Shown here one piece after another: positions 19,481 to 48,400 of a stretch of 64,000 nucleotides of DNA. Location: NCBI RefSeq assembly GCF_035084215.1, contig NC_090370.1:2852001-2916000 (forward strand). Direction: 5' to 3'. The notes beneath the pieces are model-generated. The model saw only the letters and a program-made list of their open reading frames with translations, made no database searches and was not told the DNA's origin. Both the position numbers and the translations under genes were made by a program. How positions within the stretch are numbered: the first letter of the stretch is position 1; every line of letters begins with the position of its first letter. The stretch comes from Heptranchias perlo (Eukaryota).

Positions 19481-20402
19481 AATTTGGAAGCGCCATTTAA
19501 AAAGAGACAATGTCCAGTTGTGTAGAACACTGTGGCCCACTTCACAAAATGATGCTTTAAAATGGCTGCCATCTGGGTCTCCCAAACACCACTTAACTTT
19601 ATAGGTCATTGTGTTGGACGGGTACAGTAGTGTAGTGGTGATGTTACTGGACTAATAATCCAGAGAACGTGAGTTTAAATCTCACCATGGCAGTTTGCAA
19701 ATTTGAATTCAGTTTTAAAAAGCTGGTATCAGTAAAAGAACCACCACCACCTTCTCAGGGCAACTAGGGGAGGGGCAATAAATGCCAGTCTTGCCAGCGA
19801 TGCCCACATCCCCAGAATGAAACAAAAAAATTCAAATGCATGTGTAAAACCTTTTTATTAATAAAAGCTTTTTATTGGTCTGTACTTTAATGTACAGGTG
19901 GGGGGAAGGGGGGAGAAGGGGAGATAGCATGAGGGAAATCCAGATCTGAGTAGACCGGAATTGTCCTTAAGGTCCCACAATTCCAGAATTACTCCACCTG
20001 AACATTTTTGTGAGTCTGTTTTCTGAAGTATGTTTGAGTCCTGGCTGAACAAAATGAAATACCCTTTCTGGTATTACACCAACACCAGTGACCATCACAA
20101 CAGTTTGATAGATTTTATATTTCGAAATCAACATTATTTCTATAATATGGGCATTCTGGAATAGTTTGATGATCTTGTCAGGAAATTATTTTCCCCCCAA
20201 TGTTATCCTCATTATTTTCCAACCTCCCCTGTAATTAATTAAAAAGCTTTTTAAACAAGAAATCTGAAAGTTAAGCTATCCATTCTATTCTGCTTTGACC
20301 TCTGGGAATGTGACATTTCTCTATGCCTTGTTTACATAGTCACACAGCCACAAGCCAAGTTCATTTGTTCTTTCTTCATTTAGTGAGTTTAACATCTGAT
20401 CA

Positions 20403-35090: not shown

Positions 35091-37687
35091 CCAACATTCT
35101 AATGGTGGAGGTTTCAAGTCTTAGACTTCCCCCCATTGATGAAAAATGGACACTGATGCCCTTTGTTCATTGGAGCCAAGCAGGGGAGATCAAAGGTTAG
35201 TATTGCTTCAGAATCAGGATTGTGTCATAATAGCAGGAAATATACTGGATACATTTTCATTCTGGGGCAGGGAAGATATTTGCTAATTCCCCTTCAGCCC
35301 ATTACAATGTGGGTGAGTAATACTTCACCTGTAAAAGGAACCAAGCAGGCAACAACCATTTTAGGCGAAGACTCTGTCTTGGGACATTCCTCCCTTCCCC
35401 CTCTTTATCTTCCTTGGCGGTTGATGATAGCGGAACTGGGAATCTCGGTCACACAGCTTACTGAAGAACTCTCATCGGTTTCCAGGTCTCCTGCTACAGT
35501 CAGATCCAAACAGTTCATCAGGAGCGAGGCTTGCTGATTCTGATAATCCGCCCGTCTGGATGCAACAGGGAGGTTGAATTGAAAGGCTTTAAGATCCAGT
35601 GATACCCAGCTTCGCTAGTAGGGCTACACATAACATCAGGGTGATCTGTTGCTCAACACATAGGAACGCAAGGCCAATGTCACACCAATAGAAAATAGTC
35701 AGCACTCCAGTAGAAGAGGCCTGTGACAGGCAGTGCTGGGAGACACAAACATTTTGCTTCATTCGGGTTTCTTGTTTTTGCTTTCAAATGTTTGCAGTTC
35801 CCTGGAGAAATTGGGATTTTCCATTCCATTCAGGCCCATTGAGAGAATAACATATTTCCCACATTTAACCCACTTATCTGGAATGATCCCACCAATAACT
35901 GGGAATTTCCATGCATGGGTCAACATTCCTGATGTGGCATACCTGCGATTTAAAGAAAAAAATGGTCAATAGGGTCTGATAGGTGACTACTTTGCCAGCC
36001 CTAGCCTCCGACCTGCAACCTCACTCTCTCTATTGCAATCCTTTTTGTCAGCCATGGCTCAGTGGTAGCGCTCTCGCCTCTGAGTCAGACAGTCGTAGGT
36101 TCAAGCCGAACTCCAGGGACTTGAGCCCCATAATCCAGGCTGATACTCCAGTGCAGTACTGAGAGAGTGCTACACTGTCCGAGGTGCTGTCTTTCGGATG
36201 AAAAAAAGTAATTGTCTCAAGGCAAATATGATATAATGAGTCTGTTTTTACACCCATATGTACTGTACAGGTGATATGGTTGTAGAAGAAATATGGTTGT
36301 TACCTCAGGCTTTACTTGTATACAGTAGTTAGGGTCTGTGAAGTGGTGAGCAGGGGTTGGGCAGTCTGGGCAGTATAGTTTTCCACAGTGATCTTTGTGC
36401 TATTCTATGAAGATGTACTTGTAATGGAGTAAGACAGACAATGTGACAAATAAAAAATATAATAGGACTGAGTTACTTGGGCTTCAAGGGCTGGATTAGC
36501 AGAGCTCAGTGGCTACAAGTGGCCTTAGGGTCGCAGACTGGACTCTCCTACCCTGGGGACCATCAACTTTCTGTTACACTGGGTTGGGAACGCTGCATGT
36601 CGCGAGCATGGTGTCTCGATAATGACAGCAGCTGCCTTTTAGTTTATATTGTGAATTGGAAACAATTATTATTCACAAAGATTTATTTCTGCAGATGTGG
36701 TTTATACTTATTTATGTAGCTGCAGGGGGTAAGGAAACACTAACAATTTATTTTCCAGGAACCAATCAAAAACACTTGTTTTACTTCTTATGGGCAAAAT
36801 TCTTACAAACTTCTTTCTAAATTCTCCTCCTCAACTTCCACACCCCAAAACCTCTCGCAAAAGCATAACTTCTAACTCACTGTGAGCAACACCACGACTG
36901 ATTTGCTGGAATATAAAATCTTGCATCTAACATGTGTCCATCCATCACACTCCAAAAATCACACTTTGTTACAAATGCAAAGTAATTCATCATGAATTTT
37001 TCAGACCTGGATCCTGAAATCTACAAGTAACTTACTGACCTCCAATTGACCACAGCAATTTACAAGCCGCTACAATTGCTTAATTTCCCACAGAGAATAT
37101 ATGAGCAATGGCTGTAAACAGACAGGCCAGGTAAACATCATAACCGTGTTCCTGACCCCAGACCACACATGAGCAATGCCAGGGGTGGTCTACTAGTCTA
37201 TAAAGTGCTAGACTGGTCCTCACTTTTACTTTGCTAGTCTTTCTAAGTTACTATTTATTAATGATGCACATGTTGGGCTCTCAGCTGAAAGTTAATTTCA
37301 GGTCAGTTTCCTTGTTTTTTAACATGAAGCACGTCCTTATCAAATCAGTCAATTAAAGTCAAAGCTTTCTGACTGTGGACATGGAACAGGAATTGAAACA
37401 GTTTAAATTACAGATAGTTTATGGCAAAACGTCCTGCCCCATCCACATGTAACGTGCTCAGAATGGGGTTAATCTCTGATCATTTCAGAATAAATGTGAA
37501 ATGATACACCAACCCAGCTCGTTGCAAGTTTAAAAAAAATACTTATTTATTGTTCAGGAAAAGGGAACAAACAGATATATCCCCACCACTACCACCCCAA
37601 TTGAGGAAATAACGTAAAATATGACTGAACTCAGCGGGTTTCATTCCAAAAGAGTATTAAATATTCGAAATGAATAGCACACGGTAT

Positions 37688-38177
37688 GTAAACAATCCTG
37701 GAGAGACGATCATATGTTGGAATGCTATTCACAAAAGCCGGCAGAGTAACCTGCTTACCCCTTTAAGACTCCGGCTTTCCCAATTGTCCAATCAGAAGGT
37801 TCAAGGCAGTTTCAAGGTGTCCCAAGTGTCAATTTCTCTTAAAATCTGTCAATAAAAAAAACCCTCTCACAACTATCGCTTTGGACAAATGAGCAGCAAA
37901 GCAGACCGGCGTGTGTCTGAGCTCTGAGAGAGGAGCTTGCGCATTAGTGGGACCGAGGTAGAGACAGAGCCCGGTCCAAGGGGGAGGTTGTTTACTTGAA
38001 GCCCGGGCGCCTTGAAACGGCCTCGGTCCCATTTGTCCAGTTGTTTTCGCTTCCCTTCTCTGCCCTGTTTGGGGGGTGCTGGAGGAGGGAAGAGTAACTG
38101 CAATCTCGAAGATATTTGGGATCGAACTGTGCCGGGGGGGCAGGCATAAAAAAAATAAATCTTGGTGGTTTTGTCCG
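37688..38177 (+). promoter_or_regulatory. CTDSP2 promoter/5' leader (CpG-retaining, CCAAT box, FOXO sites)
   Basis: CCAAT 37788-37792; GTAAACAA 37688; TTGTTTAC 37988; raised CpG content from about 37740 to 39200. Confidence 0.65.
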
Positions 38178-38250
38178 ATGGAAAGAGCATCTATCATAAG
38201 ACAAGTATCTCGCAAAGAGGAGCATCTCTCGCCTCTGCGATGGAATCCAG
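38178..38250 (+). CDS. CTDSP2: CTD small phosphatase 2, coding exon 1
   Basis: MERASIIRQVSRKEEHLSPLRWNP(G) resembles the SCP N-terminus MExxSIITQ; donor ag|gtaagg, phase 1. Confidence 0.85.
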
Positions 38251-40614
38251 GTAAGGAAGGAACTCCGGGGCAAACTTTGTATCTTGTCCCCTCCCCTTCT
38301 TAAAGAGAGATTTACGTGCTCTCTTTTTTTAAAAAAACAAACCTTTAAGTGAAGCAGAGAGCGAGCAGTAAATTTACAGCAAAAACAAGTGAATTTTCAA
38401 TTAAGAAACAGTGATGGGATGTTTTTTCGAACATTGTTTGCAACATCTGCATTCAGTCCAGATGTTTGGTTCGCATTTCCTTAACTTTTTTTTAGTTTCT
38501 CTCCTAATTTATGGGGAAACTACCCCATTTCTATTAAGGTTTTTGCTGCACTCTGACTCGCACATATTCCCCTCACCCGGCCAATGTTCCGGGTTTTATT
38601 AAAATGAAAATCGTTTCCACGTGAGCTTCGTTTTTGAACTGCAGACACTTAAGGTAAACAACTGTCAACGTTTCGTTCACCTTTTAATGTTTACTGAGTG
38701 ATTCTCGCCTCGCTATTTCCCTCAGTATTGCAATTCCAAACAGTTTTTTTTTGGATGTAGTTTATTTTTCAAATCTACACTCAATTTTTGTCGTGTTTAA
38801 TTTTCATGTTGGTTTCTTAGCTGAAAGTTAATTTCAAGTCAGGTTTCCCTTTTTTGATGTAGCGGTTTCTAGCAGTAGATGCATTACCCAGAGCTGCTTT
38901 TCAGTTTTTTTTAAAACAGACTAGTCTCTCTCTGGCGCTGCTAGGAATGTTGTGCAGACTGAGGTTTGAGGCTCCTTTAAGGGGAGATGGCGGATCGTTA
39001 GTCAAAGGGAGCCCCCCCGTTTGGGATATTCCAGAGCTGCATGGATACCTTGAATTATAACCAATCGTGGGATGGGGTCGGGGCGTGCGCGCGCGGAGAA
39101 TTAACGATCATTACTTCTGTATCCAGTATAAAGTACACTTTATAATTTAGTACGATGGGGCATACCGCTCCGCACTTAATGGGTCTAGCCGGATTTCCCG
39201 AGTACTGCATTAGAATGCCCTGGAGGCAGTGAGAATTCTGGTTTCTTAGTGATAACAAACCACTTGCCCTATTCATAATATTTAAAGTCTTAAAACCAAT
39301 CTTTGTAGGAGACCAGTCATGCCCAAGGGTGGGTGAGGTGGTCGCCTGTGAGGGTAGGTGAGGTGATATTTTCACCTAACCCATGAGTCAGTCAATGCAC
39401 ATGGGTGATGGCTTGTTACCTTGGCAAAGATTTCAGCTTGTGAATTAGGATAATATCTACACAAGTTGTCGATATGTTCAATTTCACCCCATACTTCCTT
39501 GTGGGAGACAAGTGCTTAAAATGGGCATTATAGGTTCAGTGGGTAATGCACTACATGACAGGCAGAACCATGCAGACCAGAAAAGTCACAGGTTTGTATC
39601 TGGTCTCTTAGCTGACCTCGCCAGGGTGAAAAGAAAAGACTTGCATTTATACAGTGCCTTTCACGACCTCAGGACGTCTCAAAGTGCTTTACAGCCAATG
39701 AAGTAGTTTTGAAGTGTCGTTACTGTTGTAATGTAGGAAACGCAGCAGCCAATTTGCACACAGCAAGATCCCACAAACAGCAATGTGATAATGACCAGAT
39801 AATTTTTTTTTAGGTTTTGGTTGAGGGATAAATTGTGTGTGTTTGTCTTTGTTCACTTCCTGTTGCACTTTGTTGATACTGCCCCTTATTGGGAGCACAT
39901 GTTCTATCTGCTGCCTTGTGAGCAACGCCATGGGAGATCTGCCAGTGTACAGATATAGTTGGTATTGGGAGCGATTTTATAGTCGTCATTCAATCGAGGG
40001 GTTTAAACAACTTGAAGCTCCAATGCTTCCTAAACATAACCATCAGTGGAACCCTGAGACAAGGCTACAGCCTCAGTTCACTCTTGTGCAGTTGTACTTT
40101 TTACACCAATTCACTGTGCAGGTCTGTAGGTGGTTTATTTTGCTGCTTTGATGGTGGGGGAATGTGCCCAGGTTCAGATGTCCTCTGTACTTGATCCACA
40201 TTGAAATAGAAAATACTGGACCCACACAGCAACCAGTGGGCTTTGCCGGGTATAGGGTGTCTGGTTGGCATAGATAATCTAAATTAGATTTCTAGTTTTC
40301 TTTAGTCAGTTAGAATTTGTTTAAATGATCATATTAGTGGTGCCTTCTCAAAGAGGGCACTTGTAAAGCTGTCTTTCTGTTGGTGACACAGAGACAACCC
40401 AGTGTCACCCTTATTGGTCAACTCAAAATGGGCATCTGTGCCGAGAAGGCAGTTGCTATTTGACATGTGGATCCTTCATCGGGCAGGTTTATCCATCTCT
40501 AGTTCTTCACTTCTGACCAAGGGTTCACACGTGAAGCATTAACTGCTCCACTCCACCAAGGCCTGACCCACTGAGTCTTTCCAGCACTTCCTGGCATTTA
40601 GATGGTAATGGGGT

Positions 40615-42055: not shown

Positions 42056-42859
42056 TGGACCAAGTCACTTCCTACTTGCTTCATTGTATAGAATTCCTGA
42101 ACAAAGAATAACTCTTAAATGCACAATCCTGATCTTAATTTACAAAATTATCCTTTTAACACTCTGCCACTCTTAATCTGATCATTCCACAGATGAATCC
42201 AGACATCCAGAGGCAGCAGCCCCATTTTAAATCTAGTTGCCATTCTATACTTTTTCCTTTTGATGTCTACCTGAGTTTCTGGGTGACTGCTTTCAGAGGG
42301 CAGTAGGATAAGGATTTGCAAATTACTTTAATCTGGGGTTTACAGAAAGCCTGATCCAGGTCCAACACTTCCTGGTAAACCAGTTCACGTGACGCTGGAC
42401 AGTGAGTCTTGGCAAGCTATTTGACAGTTGGAGGCATCACAGCCAAGCCCAGTCCTGTCCTTGCCCAACCTGCTCCAGCGGTAGTCACTGGGTAGCGATC
42501 AGGAACCCGGGCTGGTTTCTTACCATTTGTTGTTAATAGTTGTTATGACTCGGCAACTCATTCCCCTCTTGGTGAATTGTAACACCAGTGCGCTAATATT
42601 TAATACCACTGCAACTTGCTGTACCTCTGATGTTTACAACATAGACATTAAAAAGAAAGAAATGGAAATCTGAAAGAACACCAGAAAATGCTGGAAATAC
42701 ACAGCAATCAATAATAATCAGATGTATACCCTGTGAGAACTGAATTTGAACATGGACCATTTCAAATGTCAATTCTTTGAGTTATGGTAATTTCATGCAT
42801 TAATGCTGCTTTACTTTCATGTAGAAATAACTGACTTATCTGTCTTGCTGCTTTTTAAG

Positions 42860-43460: not shown

Positions 43461-45119
43461 GTGGTGAGGCCACTTTTTCTGGATAATTGGGTTCATTCTT
43501 TAACTCTTAGGCTGGTAACTTTGATCTCAGTGGCAGTATGGGTGCTGCAATTAGTCTCTGCGCCCCTGGGTTAGAGAGGAGAAAAATCCAGGTTCGTGAT
43601 CGCCATCCAGCGTGTGTATGAAGGTTGGGTGAATGACAAGATTAGGCTCTGCTGTGGTAGCTCCCTATGGTTAGAGACTGGCAGCATTCATCCTTGGGGC
43701 TCGTGTAAAGCTGTGCCCCAGAATATGTCAGCACCTTTAACGGGGGAGAAGGCGGAGGTGAGCAACTGCTGCTTTCAATGTACCAATCAGCACCGGTATT
43801 AATCACTGGGTAAGTGGTGTCACTCAGTGGAGTTACTTAGTTACGGGGTTAATGGAATGACAGATGTGCTGGGATTTGTTGGTGAGGTGCTGTTTGTTTT
43901 GTTTTAGTAACCTCTGCAAGCATGTATTTATGCTTTTTAATTTTAAAGCTTTCGCCTTGGGTTTTGCCATGTCTTTCCTTTTTATTGCCTTATTCTAACA
44001 AGTAGCCTGTTTGTATTGGTTTGTTGATGGTTAATAGATTATATTTTGCTAGATTAATCCCCCCCGCCGCCCTCCTCTCTCTACACCCCCCCCCCCCGCC
44101 ATTTCTTTCTTCTCTACTGAAGGTGCTATTTCATGCTGGGGTAGGGGCACTGACTCTGCTCTCTGGTAATCAAGCAAGTGGCTATTCTTCATATGTGAGC
44201 CAGTAGGAGAGGCTATTCAACCATGGCAGGCAATGCAGGCTAGCCTGATCCTGTCCTTACCAATGTTCATGTGTGCACATTTCCAACAAGTCAGTCTTTG
44301 GAGTGCTAGTTCCCCCTCCCCCACCAAAAAAAAGCGTGCGTGTACGTGTAGCCAGTAATTGCATCAATTTTCCTGCTATTTGACCCTCCCTATCTCTGTA
44401 ACCTCCTCCAGCCCTACAACCCTCCGAGAACTCTGCGCTCCTACGGTTCTGGCCTCCTATGCATCCCTGATTTCCTTCACCCCACTGTTGGCGGCCGTGC
44501 CTTCAGCTGCCTAGGTCCTAAGCTCTGGCATTCCCTCCCTAAACCTCTCTGCCTCTCTCTCCTCCTTTTAAGACACTACTTAAAACCTACCTCTTTGACC
44601 AAGCTTTTGGTCACATGTCCTAATATCTCCTTATGTGGCTCGGCGTCAAGTTGTGTCTGATTGTACTCCTATGAAGCGTTTTCGGACGTTTTACTACGTT
44701 AAAGGTGCTATATAAATGCAAGTTGTTGATGCTATCAGACCCCAGACCTGGAAACTGTTTCAAGGTCGGCGATGTCAATGGGCTGCTGTAGAAGTGGATC
44801 TGCACAGCTGAGGCTCACCGGACGTGTCACACTAGTGCTGTCCCTCCTTGGTGGCAAGCTGGCGGTTTTACTTTTATTACAGAACATCCAAGTTTAATTC
44901 AAAACAAATGGAAGACTCGTCTTGCTCAGGAGAGGATTTTAGATTCCCATTTAGTATGTGGGCTCGGAGTCGATGAAGTGTGGTCAGAAGGAAAGTGGGC
45001 CACATCAAAGAGGCATCTTTAGAAAGTATATCATAAACGTTCCCTTGACTTTTAAACATGCTTTTAACATTAAACGGTGATGCGTCCTTCTATTTTCTCT
45101 AGCTTTGAGATGGACGATC

Positions 45120-45400
45120 CCAGGTTCTATCCACCCCGGTCTGTGCAGCCATGGCTTGGGTGACGGGCCTCGGGGTTAGGGAAGGGAGAGATCGCCTCGG
45201 ACTCCTGCACCCAATCGTAATGAAGTAATTCCCGCCAGAAAGTGCGCGCGTGCGCCGCTGATGTCCGATAACGACCAGGAGCGGGCTTGGCTGTGACGTC
45301 AGCCGCGGCGGGACACTCGAGCGCATGCGCGAGGTAATGGCGGGCGGCTTGATGAGTGTGGATCTGTACTCGAGTGAGTGAGTCGCCGCCTTCTGGCGAG
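45120..45400 (+). promoter_or_regulatory. Intronic CpG island derived from SINE family C: CCAAT 45211, CRE TGACGTCA 45294-45301, NRF1 GCGCATGCGC 45321-45330
   Basis: Dense CpGs and exact motifs; alignable by eye to family C copies such as 41730-42055. Confidence 0.65.
45337..45373 (+). CDS. Candidate alternative first coding exon of CTDSP2 (MAGGLMSVDLYS-)
   Basis: Kozak-like gtaATGG; donor GTGAGT at 45374 gives phase 1, in frame with exon 2; in-frame upstream ATG at 45325; no transcript evidence available. Confidence 0.45.
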
Positions 45401-48400
45401 TAGGAGAGAAAATAAGAGTAAAATTGAAGGACGCTGATTTTATACCCACTGGGCTTGGGGGGGGGGGGGGGGTGGAGGAGGAGGAGAACTGCAGCTTCTC
45501 AATTGGTGCAACATATAATTTGTAGCATTTTACAAATGCAGCCCTCCAGTCATTATGGTTGCTGCCCTTGGCAACCAACATCCTCGGATGATGTTCTGGG
45601 TGGCGTGTTTTATGAAGTGTTAATAATAGGGTAGATCTAATGCCACTATGACTGGGTGGTCTTTGAGTTCCAGAGTTTGTAAATGGGACCAGAGCTTGAT
45701 GCCTGGTCTGTGCTGAGTTAGCTGATCGCAGCTAGGGCAGACCTAGGGACACGACCATTGACTTCAATCAGCACCACTGAGCTAGGACAGTGGATGAGAG
45801 GAAATGAGCCAGATGACTCCAGTTACTCAATTTCCTAGGTGAGGATAGGATTAGGCTTCAGTTTGATGTCCCCTGTAGTTGAAGAGCCTACTGACATTCT
45901 CTGTCTAGGCTCACATGTGAAACACAGTCACTTGTGGTGAGGTACCAGAGGGCTAATGCAATCCATGGAGCTGTACCTCAGCTAAGAGTCGGTGCCTTCA
46001 CGAAAGGAGGGGAGAAAACCAGGAGTTTTTTTTTTAGAAAGTACATGCAGGCTCTAGTAATTGGGTGGGATTTGTAAGGGAGCCTTTAATAACTAATTTA
46101 GTAACCGTTTCAGGACAGGCAGTGCTATTACTGGGGTGTGGTGTGTGCACACGTTTGCTGTATCTCAGCACAGGAATCTGCTCAAACTACTTTGCCAAGA
46201 AATGTTACGCTGTGATCCGCACTTCACGAAACCAGAGATCAAAACAACCACATGGCAAACTTCTGAACCACACCCTATGTGATCAGTCCAAATCATTTGG
46301 TTTAAAAGCAGCATTCTTCATAACCAACACCGATCTAATTGCAGTTATGTGTAAAGTACTAATCAGAATGAAAAACAATCGGAAACTACTTGGATCAGAA
46401 GCAGTCCAGTGGGAGTGAATGGGAAGGGGTGACTCTGATAAAGCCACTCTTGCTGTTTGTGATGTCGTGTGGTTCTGTGTTACCTTGTCACCCAATCCCA
46501 GCCCCATGCGTTGCCCCCTCCCTTGTATAGGCGGTGAGGTTTAGGGAGGGAATTACAGAGCTTAGAGCCTTGGTGGCTAAAGGCACAGCTGCCAATGATG
46601 AGGCGATGCAAGTGGGGGTGCAGAGGAGGCCAAAATTGGAGGAATGCAGAGTTCTCGGAGGGTTGTAGGGCTGGAGGAGGTTACAGAGATGGGATGGGGC
46701 GAGGCCATGGAGGGATTTGGACACACGGATGAGAATTTTAAAATTCAACATTTTTGGAATCTTGGGGGCGTGGGCTGGGGTTGTAGGTGTTACAGAAGGG
46801 CTAGGAAACGATATCAAAAGGTGGGGAAGGTGGGGTGACAATATTTAACCAGGGAGAGGCCACTTAACTCAGCAACTCTTCAATCCCAGTCACTGCTCTT
46901 GACTGAAGTTGACCTTAATTGAGGCCCATCTGAAGCCTGGTGATGATAATTCTTAATTTGGGAGCTATGGACCCTCCTCCCTTGGCAAACAAGCCTTAAT
47001 CCAAAGTCAACCCTGGAATAATGTTTGACGGGTAAATGACCCTGGAACAGGCGATTTGGCGGAAAGCCGGCATAAACACTTCCCCCAAGGAGCCAAAAAC
47101 CGTCAGCCTAAGTTTTCACCTACGAACATAGCCAACACAAACACTGTTACAGTCACCTGGTATCCTGCCAGCTTGTTCTGTTGCTTGGCAACATAGGTGC
47201 CAGGGATGAGCAAAGTCATTTGGATGACTGATTCTTTGACAGCCTGATTCTGGAAAATGAATAGACTGACTGCAGTAAGCTGGATTCACAGCCACCATTT
47301 TGAAAACTTCTGGTTCTGAAAATCTTTTTCAAAATGGAGGCAAGCCAAGCCTACATTAAGTGAGCACAGTGGACCTTATTCACAGCTGCTGTTTTTGCAA
47401 ATTTCTAAATAATCTCAATAATTTCCTGTGTTTAATTTTTTTGGGGTGTTTAGTGTTGACTGTCAACAGTTGTCCGTTTTCGTGATTGAAATATTAAGTT
47501 GAATCCACACCAGAAAGGTTTATGTTTCCTCAAATTGCCCAAATTATGGTTGGCTTGGAGCTCATCATATCTCCACCCCCCCCCCGCACCCCCCCCCCCC
47601 CCAACAAAGTAGATGAGTGGGGATGTTGGCAGCACGTCCTTGTATCTGGCACTCCTCCGAGTATGTATTGAAGTCCTCCATGGTTGCTTGATGACTCAGT
47701 GGGCAAATGCACTGCATGGTGCAGCACAGAACCATACAGACTGGGAAGATCGCAGATTTGATCCTTAGCCATGCTGAGCTTGCTAGCGGAGGGGCCTGGT
47801 ATAAATGTCCCAGCCTCGCTGAGCTAATGAGGGAAAGAGCATTTCAGGGTCTCTGCCATCCACTGACCTCTGCCTGAAAGTGCAGTGTGTACACAGACAT
47901 TTCTGTATGGATGTCAAGCGGGGACAGGATGAGGCCTGACTGTGTTGACCTGGACATGCTCAGTCTAAGCTCACACAGGAAGACTAGGCAGCTGGGCAAG
48001 GTGCCAGAGGGCTGCTGAAATCTGTGGAACCAGTGCCTGGCAGGTAGATGAACTGCAGTAAAGATCCTCTAGTTCAAAGCTAACATTTGGAAGCCATTTT
48101 ATGGGCAGGCTCCTCTGTGTCCCTGCCAACTAAATGTCAACGCACTTTGAATTGATCTAATGTACAGAGGGTGACTAAGTGTGAAAATGGGCATGTAAAG
48201 TGACTCTAACACCTAGGTGCTGACTTGGACGGGCACAGCCAGGGAACAACTGCTCCCCTGTGGTAATTTGTGGGACCTTGCTGTGCACAAATTGGCTGTC
48301 AGGTTTCCTACATTACAACAGTGACTACACTTCAAAAGTACTTCATTGGCTGTAAAGCGCTTTGGGGCATCCTGAGGTCGTGAAAGGTGCTATCTAAATG

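Follow-up and report, generated by a model that had tools for sequence, protein, structure and literature searches.

Promoters born from repeats are common and well known in mammals, where most of them lack CpG islands. The available part of a human atlas (PMC12963367) counts 26,056 transposon-derived alternative promoters or transcription start sites (TSSs), with SINEs (Alu, MIR) as common sources and testis using the widest range, and reports that more than 93% of the human transposon-derived TSSs are without CpG islands and that they tend to be narrow and of TATA type. In mouse cells, according to an excerpt of PMC9729108, the CRE drives IAP LTR promoters via CREB1 once methylation is lost, and NRF1 and CREB1 bind unmethylated sites only. 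The canonical human CTDSP2 promoter has been described as a direct FOXO target, and the accessible part of that source (PMC4613505) mentions no alternative CTDSP2 first exon. A search of the open-licence literature, judged by titles and the beginnings of abstracts, found nothing on the present locus (CTDSP2 alternative promoter/miR-26a, CTDSP2 in sharks, exapted shark SINE promoters).

Here, we describe a candidate stretch in the first intron of the Heptranchias perlo CTDSP2-like/miR-26 gene, which, as predicted from its letters, is probably a SINE-derived CpG-island alternative first exon and a minor second promoter of CTDSP2. The window, that is, the whole 64,000-nt stretch of DNA that was analysed, encodes an exon 2 whose translation is 100% identical to part of P0003 (XP_067832587.1), a Heptranchias CTDSP2-like protein. 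In a tree of 18 proteins, the window protein groups with CTDSP2 (100/99), separate from CTDSP1 and CTDSPL; by this grouping and by the hosted miR-26, the host gene is CTDSP2, not CTDSP1 or CTDSPL. Its relevant parts are as follows:

38178..38250, forward strand: canonical exon 1, coding part, phase 1; contigs join it to exon 2
50988..51142, forward strand: exon 2, CTDSP2-like, with the acceptor common to both first exons and a cysteine run
56465..56545, forward strand: miR-26 precursor in a downstream intron (76.4 bits, E 2.5e-17)

No Heptranchias protein record other than P0003 (cluster of 1) was found, and P0003 carries canonical exon 1. Single assembled contigs, a kind of data that drops rare forms, join exon 1 directly to exon 2 in 4/4 runs of one sample, taken as RNA by guess; therefore, the main form in the sampled runs skips the candidate, which is at most minor or tissue-restricted there. 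The 45373-50988 junction is absent among the contig joints listed for this one sample. None of the four runs has any contig cover (depth 0) across 45016-45466, and with a gene depth of just 8-22 this was counted neither way.

A FOXO-type site is located at 37989, by canonical exon 1, and a tandem FOXO-type pair was observed at 37114 and 37131. Contigs of the canonical transcript continue 655-952 letters past 37800 in three runs (region 36850-37800), and the canonical transcript may thus begin well 5' of the site at 37989. Within exon 2, 51050-51061 encodes four consecutive cysteines compared with two in the relative discussed below, and this region resembles the palmitoylated Cys44/45 of CTDSP1 in the available part of PMC7281111; the cysteine run and the entire catalytic domain are kept in both predicted isoforms. 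An A-to-G difference at 51091 of exon 2 (third codon position), present in runs X1 and X4 and absent in X2 and X3, is probably an allele. A 13-residue exon at about 52456-52494 is present in P0003 and skipped in P0006 of the relative.

The earlier note on this DNA had traced 45120-45400 to an old SINE copy, with homology over 45120-45300. Formal alignment to the repeat family agrees with this origin: a profile of 17 siblings, from which the candidate was excluded, matches 45167-45414 with 38.5 bits (E 1.4e-11), and a second profile, made from 19 copies, scores 32.8 bits where 1000 first-order Markov imitations of the stretch do not exceed 6.1, the family profile being built from copies inside the 64-kb window alone. 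BLASTN of the candidate returned one marginal sibling match (E 0.049). The claimed extent was too short, as the profile match reaches 45414, so that the repeat takes in the NRF1 palindrome, start codon and donor described below.

45167..45414, forward strand: old interspersed repeat copy, tRNA-SINE-like, of a model of about 370-385 nt (model positions 101-370; E 1.4e-11 and 4.1e-10 with candidate-free profiles)
45116..45149, forward strand: probable decayed 5' head of the repeat, tRNA T-arm/B-box-like (seen in global alignments only, outside the local profile match)

The family models comprise 372 and 385 positions and give 20 matches at E <1e-9 in the 64 kb; divergence of the copies is about 30%. 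Because the family is short, dispersed and present on both strands, it is likely a SINE family. T-arm/B-box-like letters, judged by eye against what we take to be the B-box consensus, can be made out in several siblings and, in decayed form, in the candidate; the repeat copies gave no Rfam tRNA match and no ARAGORN match either. Per base, the held-out score of the candidate (0.13 bits/nt) is below that of every sibling (0.17-0.57 bits/nt), probably because of insertions and deletions in the candidate. SacSINE1/CmiSINE and the UCON3-domain SINEs, as presented in the available parts of PMC5499810 and PMC7245038, respectively, have a tRNA-like head and are old, dispersed and found within genes; the window family is likewise old, dispersed and found within a gene, with a putative tRNA-like head. 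The UCON3 SINE rows in that part of PMC7245038 are unlike the window family in a comparison by eye, and we could not match the family to any named chondrichthyan SINE in these partial sources, UCON3 being compared by eye only.

Other repeats were also observed in the window. A weak Rfam tRNA match at 19627-19686 (31.7 bits, no ARAGORN call), located in a repeated stretch, is probably a SINE head. A second repeat family has far more similar copies (29720-29997, 50690-50956 and others, with up to 15 overlapping matches), presumably resembles the Deu-domain SacSINE1, and its like attracts very high contig depth. On the reverse strand, 28191-29630 holds a reverse transcriptase-like open frame of 479 residues within a retroelement that is CpG-rich and probably young, and which we take to be Penelope-like.

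The earlier note described the candidate as CpG-rich unlike its siblings, and the counts agree: CpG obs/exp is 1.22 in the candidate copy and 0-0.44 in 19 siblings. The neighbouring siblings about 240 and 870 nt away, located at 45657-46021 and 44097-44295, have values of 0.18 and 0.09.

45105..45415, no strand assigned: small CpG island of 311 nt (GC 0.60, 30 CpG, obs/exp 1.09), the densest CpG stretch of the window

The island lies above the usual thresholds of at least 200 nt, GC >0.5 and obs/exp >0.6, and reaches the 500-nt standard only when padded to 45105-45755; its obs/exp of 1.09 compares with 0.68 in the canonical promoter. Among ancestral CpG columns (50, inferred by a heuristic), CG is kept in 13/38 in the candidate and 38/624 in the siblings, whose totals were summed by hand (Fisher p 9e-7). 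At non-CpG positions, the identity of the candidate to the consensus, which the siblings themselves built, is 0.70, within the sibling range of 0.64-0.83; thus, copy and siblings seem to be of about the same age, and the copy has lost CpGs much more slowly. The usual cause of slowed CpG loss is focal germline hypomethylation. Since CpGs were kept at about the same non-CpG divergence as in the siblings, the pattern points to long, focal germline hypomethylation of the candidate copy. A CpG 'shore' effect was considered and is unlikely because the nearest siblings are CpG-depleted.

A neutral repeat copy that is CpG-rich by luck, with motifs and protein likeness due to chance, is a very improbable account. 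It would gain from the finding that 14/27 candidate CpGs in model columns fall off the inferred ancestral columns, some of these being new and some alignment effects; against it, weak-to-strong and strong-to-weak changes in the candidate are about equal (23 vs 24), and so no strong GC drive is indicated. The motifs bear on this account as well.

45294..45301, no strand assigned: CRE, full palindrome, the only one in the window (motif as given in the available part of PMC9729108)
45321..45330, no strand assigned: NRF1 10-bp palindrome, the only one in the window, where the alignment has deletions relative to the family model
45246..45255, no strand assigned: second NRF1-type core, overlooked by the earlier note
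45211..45215, forward strand: CCAAT pentamer in weak context, excluded from the evidence

The perfect CRE at 45294 and the perfect NRF1 palindrome at 45321 were both found where the earlier note had placed them. The CCAAT box was also correctly positioned at 45211 and is weak as promoter evidence: the surrounding letters do not fit RRCCAAT, and at least 80 such pentamers occur on the forward strand before position 51,000. The NRF1 palindrome contains a weak-context in-frame ATG at 45325. At the CG column of the CRE, siblings have TG (12), CA (2) or TC (1); because this CG falls on an inferred ancestral CpG column, the CRE half-site was probably carried by the family and hence is old, with only the second half derived.

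In 20,000 dinucleotide shuffles of 45100-45420, a CRE arises at a frequency of 0.0035, any NRF1 core at 0.0055, two cores at 5e-5, and CRE and NRF1 together in 0/20,000. At least three distinct motifs of an 11-motif panel, which is loose and was chosen after the finding was seen, occur in 69/20,000 shuffles and in 9/398 window tiles; two of these tiles lie at the candidate, and the remaining seven qualify through TATA, CCAAT, GC-box, RFX or ZNF143 patterns. The NRF1/CREB motif matches, which are predicted sites, exceed chance. For a neutral copy it can be said that the motifs were picked after looking and that CG-rich motifs arise more easily in CpG-rich DNA; shuffles that preserve the dinucleotides, however, seldom yield them. 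No FOXO-type site was found in 44800-45800.

Three further leads were set aside: a YY1-like core over the ATG is weak (0.015 in shuffles, with flanks that misfit the usual consensus), an RFX-like box at 45561 is weak, being one of six such boxes in the window, and a metagenome scan for the CRE-NRF1 pattern gave one locus (L001, GC 0.65) with no family-profile match, which we regard as chance.

CpG retention and motifs require no spliced product, and the repeat could accordingly have made an unmethylated regulatory element (an intronic enhancer or a promoter of a noncoding RNA) without any coding CTDSP2 start in Heptranchias, the ATG and donor being incidental or relics. We consider this unlikely in view of the predicted exon.

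45337..45373, forward strand: predicted alternative-exon coding part, ATG plus 11 codons plus one base (phase 1)
45374..45379, forward strand: predicted splice donor GTGAGT, phase 1, which fits the exon 2 acceptor at 50988
45085..45102, forward strand: acceptor-like pyrimidine tract plus AG, the most pyrimidine-rich in intron 1 (14/15)

A strong-context ATG at 45337 (G at -3 and +4) and a GTGAGT donor at 45374 in phase 1 matching exon 2 had been proposed before, and all were found as described; the 12 codons plus A give Ser at the junction with exon 2. ATG is present in 0/12 siblings with letters in those columns. GT is present at the donor columns in 2/11 siblings with letters, one of them a full consensus donor, so by this alignment the family appears to be one or two changes short of a donor here. 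This closeness, together with the unconstrained look of the peptide (see below) and the single Heptranchias model, favours a purely regulatory element. On the other hand, ATG, open frame, phase and donor fit exon 2 as well as the length and codons of a relative's isoform, which would be unexpected by chance.

This isoform, P0004 (UniRef100_UPI00398EB665), is a CTDSP2-like isoform X2 of another shark, found by a search with residues 1-110 of P0003. In P0004, 12 different residues plus the junction Ser replace exon 1, while P0005 and P0006, members of the same cluster, carry the canonical one. The window exon has the same length and shares Met1, Ala2 and Val8 with P0004 (3/12 residues); among the remaining nine codons, seven differ by a single base and two by two bases. 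Three sites in intron 1 have an ATG, 11 open codons, A and GT, and their distances to P0004 are 11 (45337) and 18 (the other two). A likelihood score including the donor ranks 45337 first among 12,694 intron-1 positions at four divergences, 7-13 bits ahead, whereas on the peptide score alone it ranks fourth, with 42193, 49061 and 39162 equal or better. The donor term partly rewards the selection made by the earlier note; therefore, independent evidence comes from the exact length, the base at the junction and the rank on the peptide. In the reverse test against the window exon, P0004 ranks 1/207 among distinct N-termini and 1/837 among Met-starting 12-mers. The homologous region of nine sibling copies scores below zero against P0004, so another copy of the family would be a poor source of the P0004 exon.

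The exon of P0004 and the window exon are thus likely orthologous, judged on 13 residues. Isoform models such as P0004 are usually supported by transcript reads. Because the first exon of P0004 is probably this one, the stretch is likely a second gene start. The match is also independent of the choice of motifs, which speaks against a neutral copy. Taken together, the in-frame alternative first exon claimed by the earlier note gains independent support from the isoform of a relative, while the Heptranchias contigs join exon 1 straight to exon 2. Among 15 cartilaginous-fish CTDSP2 records (from the best 120 of 3272 matches), one N-terminus is of P0004 type, 11 are canonical and three are other; no further protein with the P0004 N-terminus was found in the best 150 of the 50%-cluster representatives queried with P0004.

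The frame at 42193-42228 starts with ATG, is preceded directly by AG and is best or near-best on peptide. As true orthologue of the P0004 exon it was rejected: 6/12 residues are identical, it has no donor, and it ranks 4-5 with the donor term. The same relative has P0007, with a third first exon that gives Met and one base only; ATG-G-GT sites with weak donors are found in intron 1 of the window at 39401, 43538 and 50248.

Compared with the relative, the alternative exon requires at least 11 base changes in 33, versus 3/72 in exon 1 and 14/147 in exon 2. The alternative peptide therefore looks unconstrained, and while the new N-terminus of the earlier note is indeed predicted in frame, its functional value is doubtful. 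Simulation found 11 changes ordinary at a neutral distance of about 0.4-0.75 (P 0.07 at 0.4, 0.015 at 0.3); the count fits an unconstrained peptide and an early split, and would tell against orthology if the true distance were below 0.3. The relative is closer to other sharks than to Heptranchias in the 18-protein tree, weakly (85/83), and this may point to an old origin of the exon within sharks. As a purpose of the isoform, loss of the conserved I-T-Q motif was considered and found weak: I[TAS]Q is present in 73/84 homologues starting M-D or M-E, and the window protein and several cartilaginous-fish proteins are already without the motif.

The acceptor-like tract, which the earlier note did not take into account, allows another arrangement, in which 45103-45373 is spliced in between exons 1 and 2 as an internal exon of 271 nt, or serves as a first/internal hybrid. 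The reading frame would stop after residue 49, giving less phosphatase while miR-26 is still made, and an annotation pipeline would place the start at the last ATG, the situation seen in P0004. This is quite unlikely on present evidence. AG 45102 follows the only tract in intron 1 with 14/15 pyrimidines (four acceptor-like sites have at least 13, and real acceptors have 9-13), and a protein record cannot separate a first from an internal exon; yet this arrangement does not account for the CpG island, the CRE and the pair of NRF1 cores, which immediately precede the ATG in a promoter-like layout, and the contigs of one sample skip 45103-45373. First-exon and internal-exon uses could coexist.

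Under the preferred reading of a SINE-derived first exon with its own promoter, the family would originally have been CpG-rich, with a half-CRE and a near-donor. The candidate copy would have escaped germline methylation, probably aided by bound methylation-sensitive factors, and point changes and deletions would have completed the CRE and created the NRF1 palindrome, the ATG and the donor. We infer a Pol II start near 45300-45335 with NRF1 and CREB-family factors bound, translation from 45337 and splicing from 45373 to 50988; the product would be a phosphatase with a shorter N-terminus, together with the intronic miR-26. Probably, the exon already existed when the P0004 lineage branched off. 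What was kept would be the extra transcriptional input, likely not the 13-residue peptide; germline or testis as the tissue is a guess. A bolder version is doubtful as a whole: a Pol III-type SINE would have been rebuilt stepwise into a full housekeeping-style CpG-island promoter with its own ATG and donor; fixed close to the base of the living sharks, it would since have been retained as a source of CTDSP2 and miR-26 that is independent of FOXO and possibly germline, and an optional stop-bearing internal use would uncouple miR-26 from the phosphatase.

The candidate looks like a shark case in which the conversion of an old SINE copy to a CpG-island promoter can be traced, and in which the siblings separate inherited parts (CpGs, half-CRE, near-donor) from new ones (full CRE, NRF1 palindrome, ATG). 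If this is true, a conserved regulator of growth and neurons has gained, together with the microRNA in its intron, a second, lineage-specific input, and CpG retention relative to siblings could flag co-opted repeats in genomes without epigenomic data.

Compared with the canonical CTDSP2 promoter, for which we rely on the accessible part of PMC4613505, the window has FOXO-type sites around canonical exon 1, as in human, whereas the surroundings of the candidate (44800-45800) have none. Similar to the IAP LTRs in the excerpt of PMC9729108, the candidate has a full CRE in a retroelement, with CREB1 and NRF1 as likely methylation-sensitive drivers, their binding being presumed here. The IAP CRE, however, is part of the Pol II promoter in the LTR of the element itself, which methylation silences, while the candidate is a short non-LTR copy whose CRE would have been completed after insertion and which was apparently long unmethylated. 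Like the human transposon-derived promoters covered by the available part of PMC12963367, it is a repeat copy within a host gene that gives a likely second start, here predicted from sequence, and unlike most of them it is of CpG-island, NRF1/CRE type and brings its own ATG and donor. By this comparison, the candidate defines no new kind of system and, as predicted, would work like known transposon-derived promoters.
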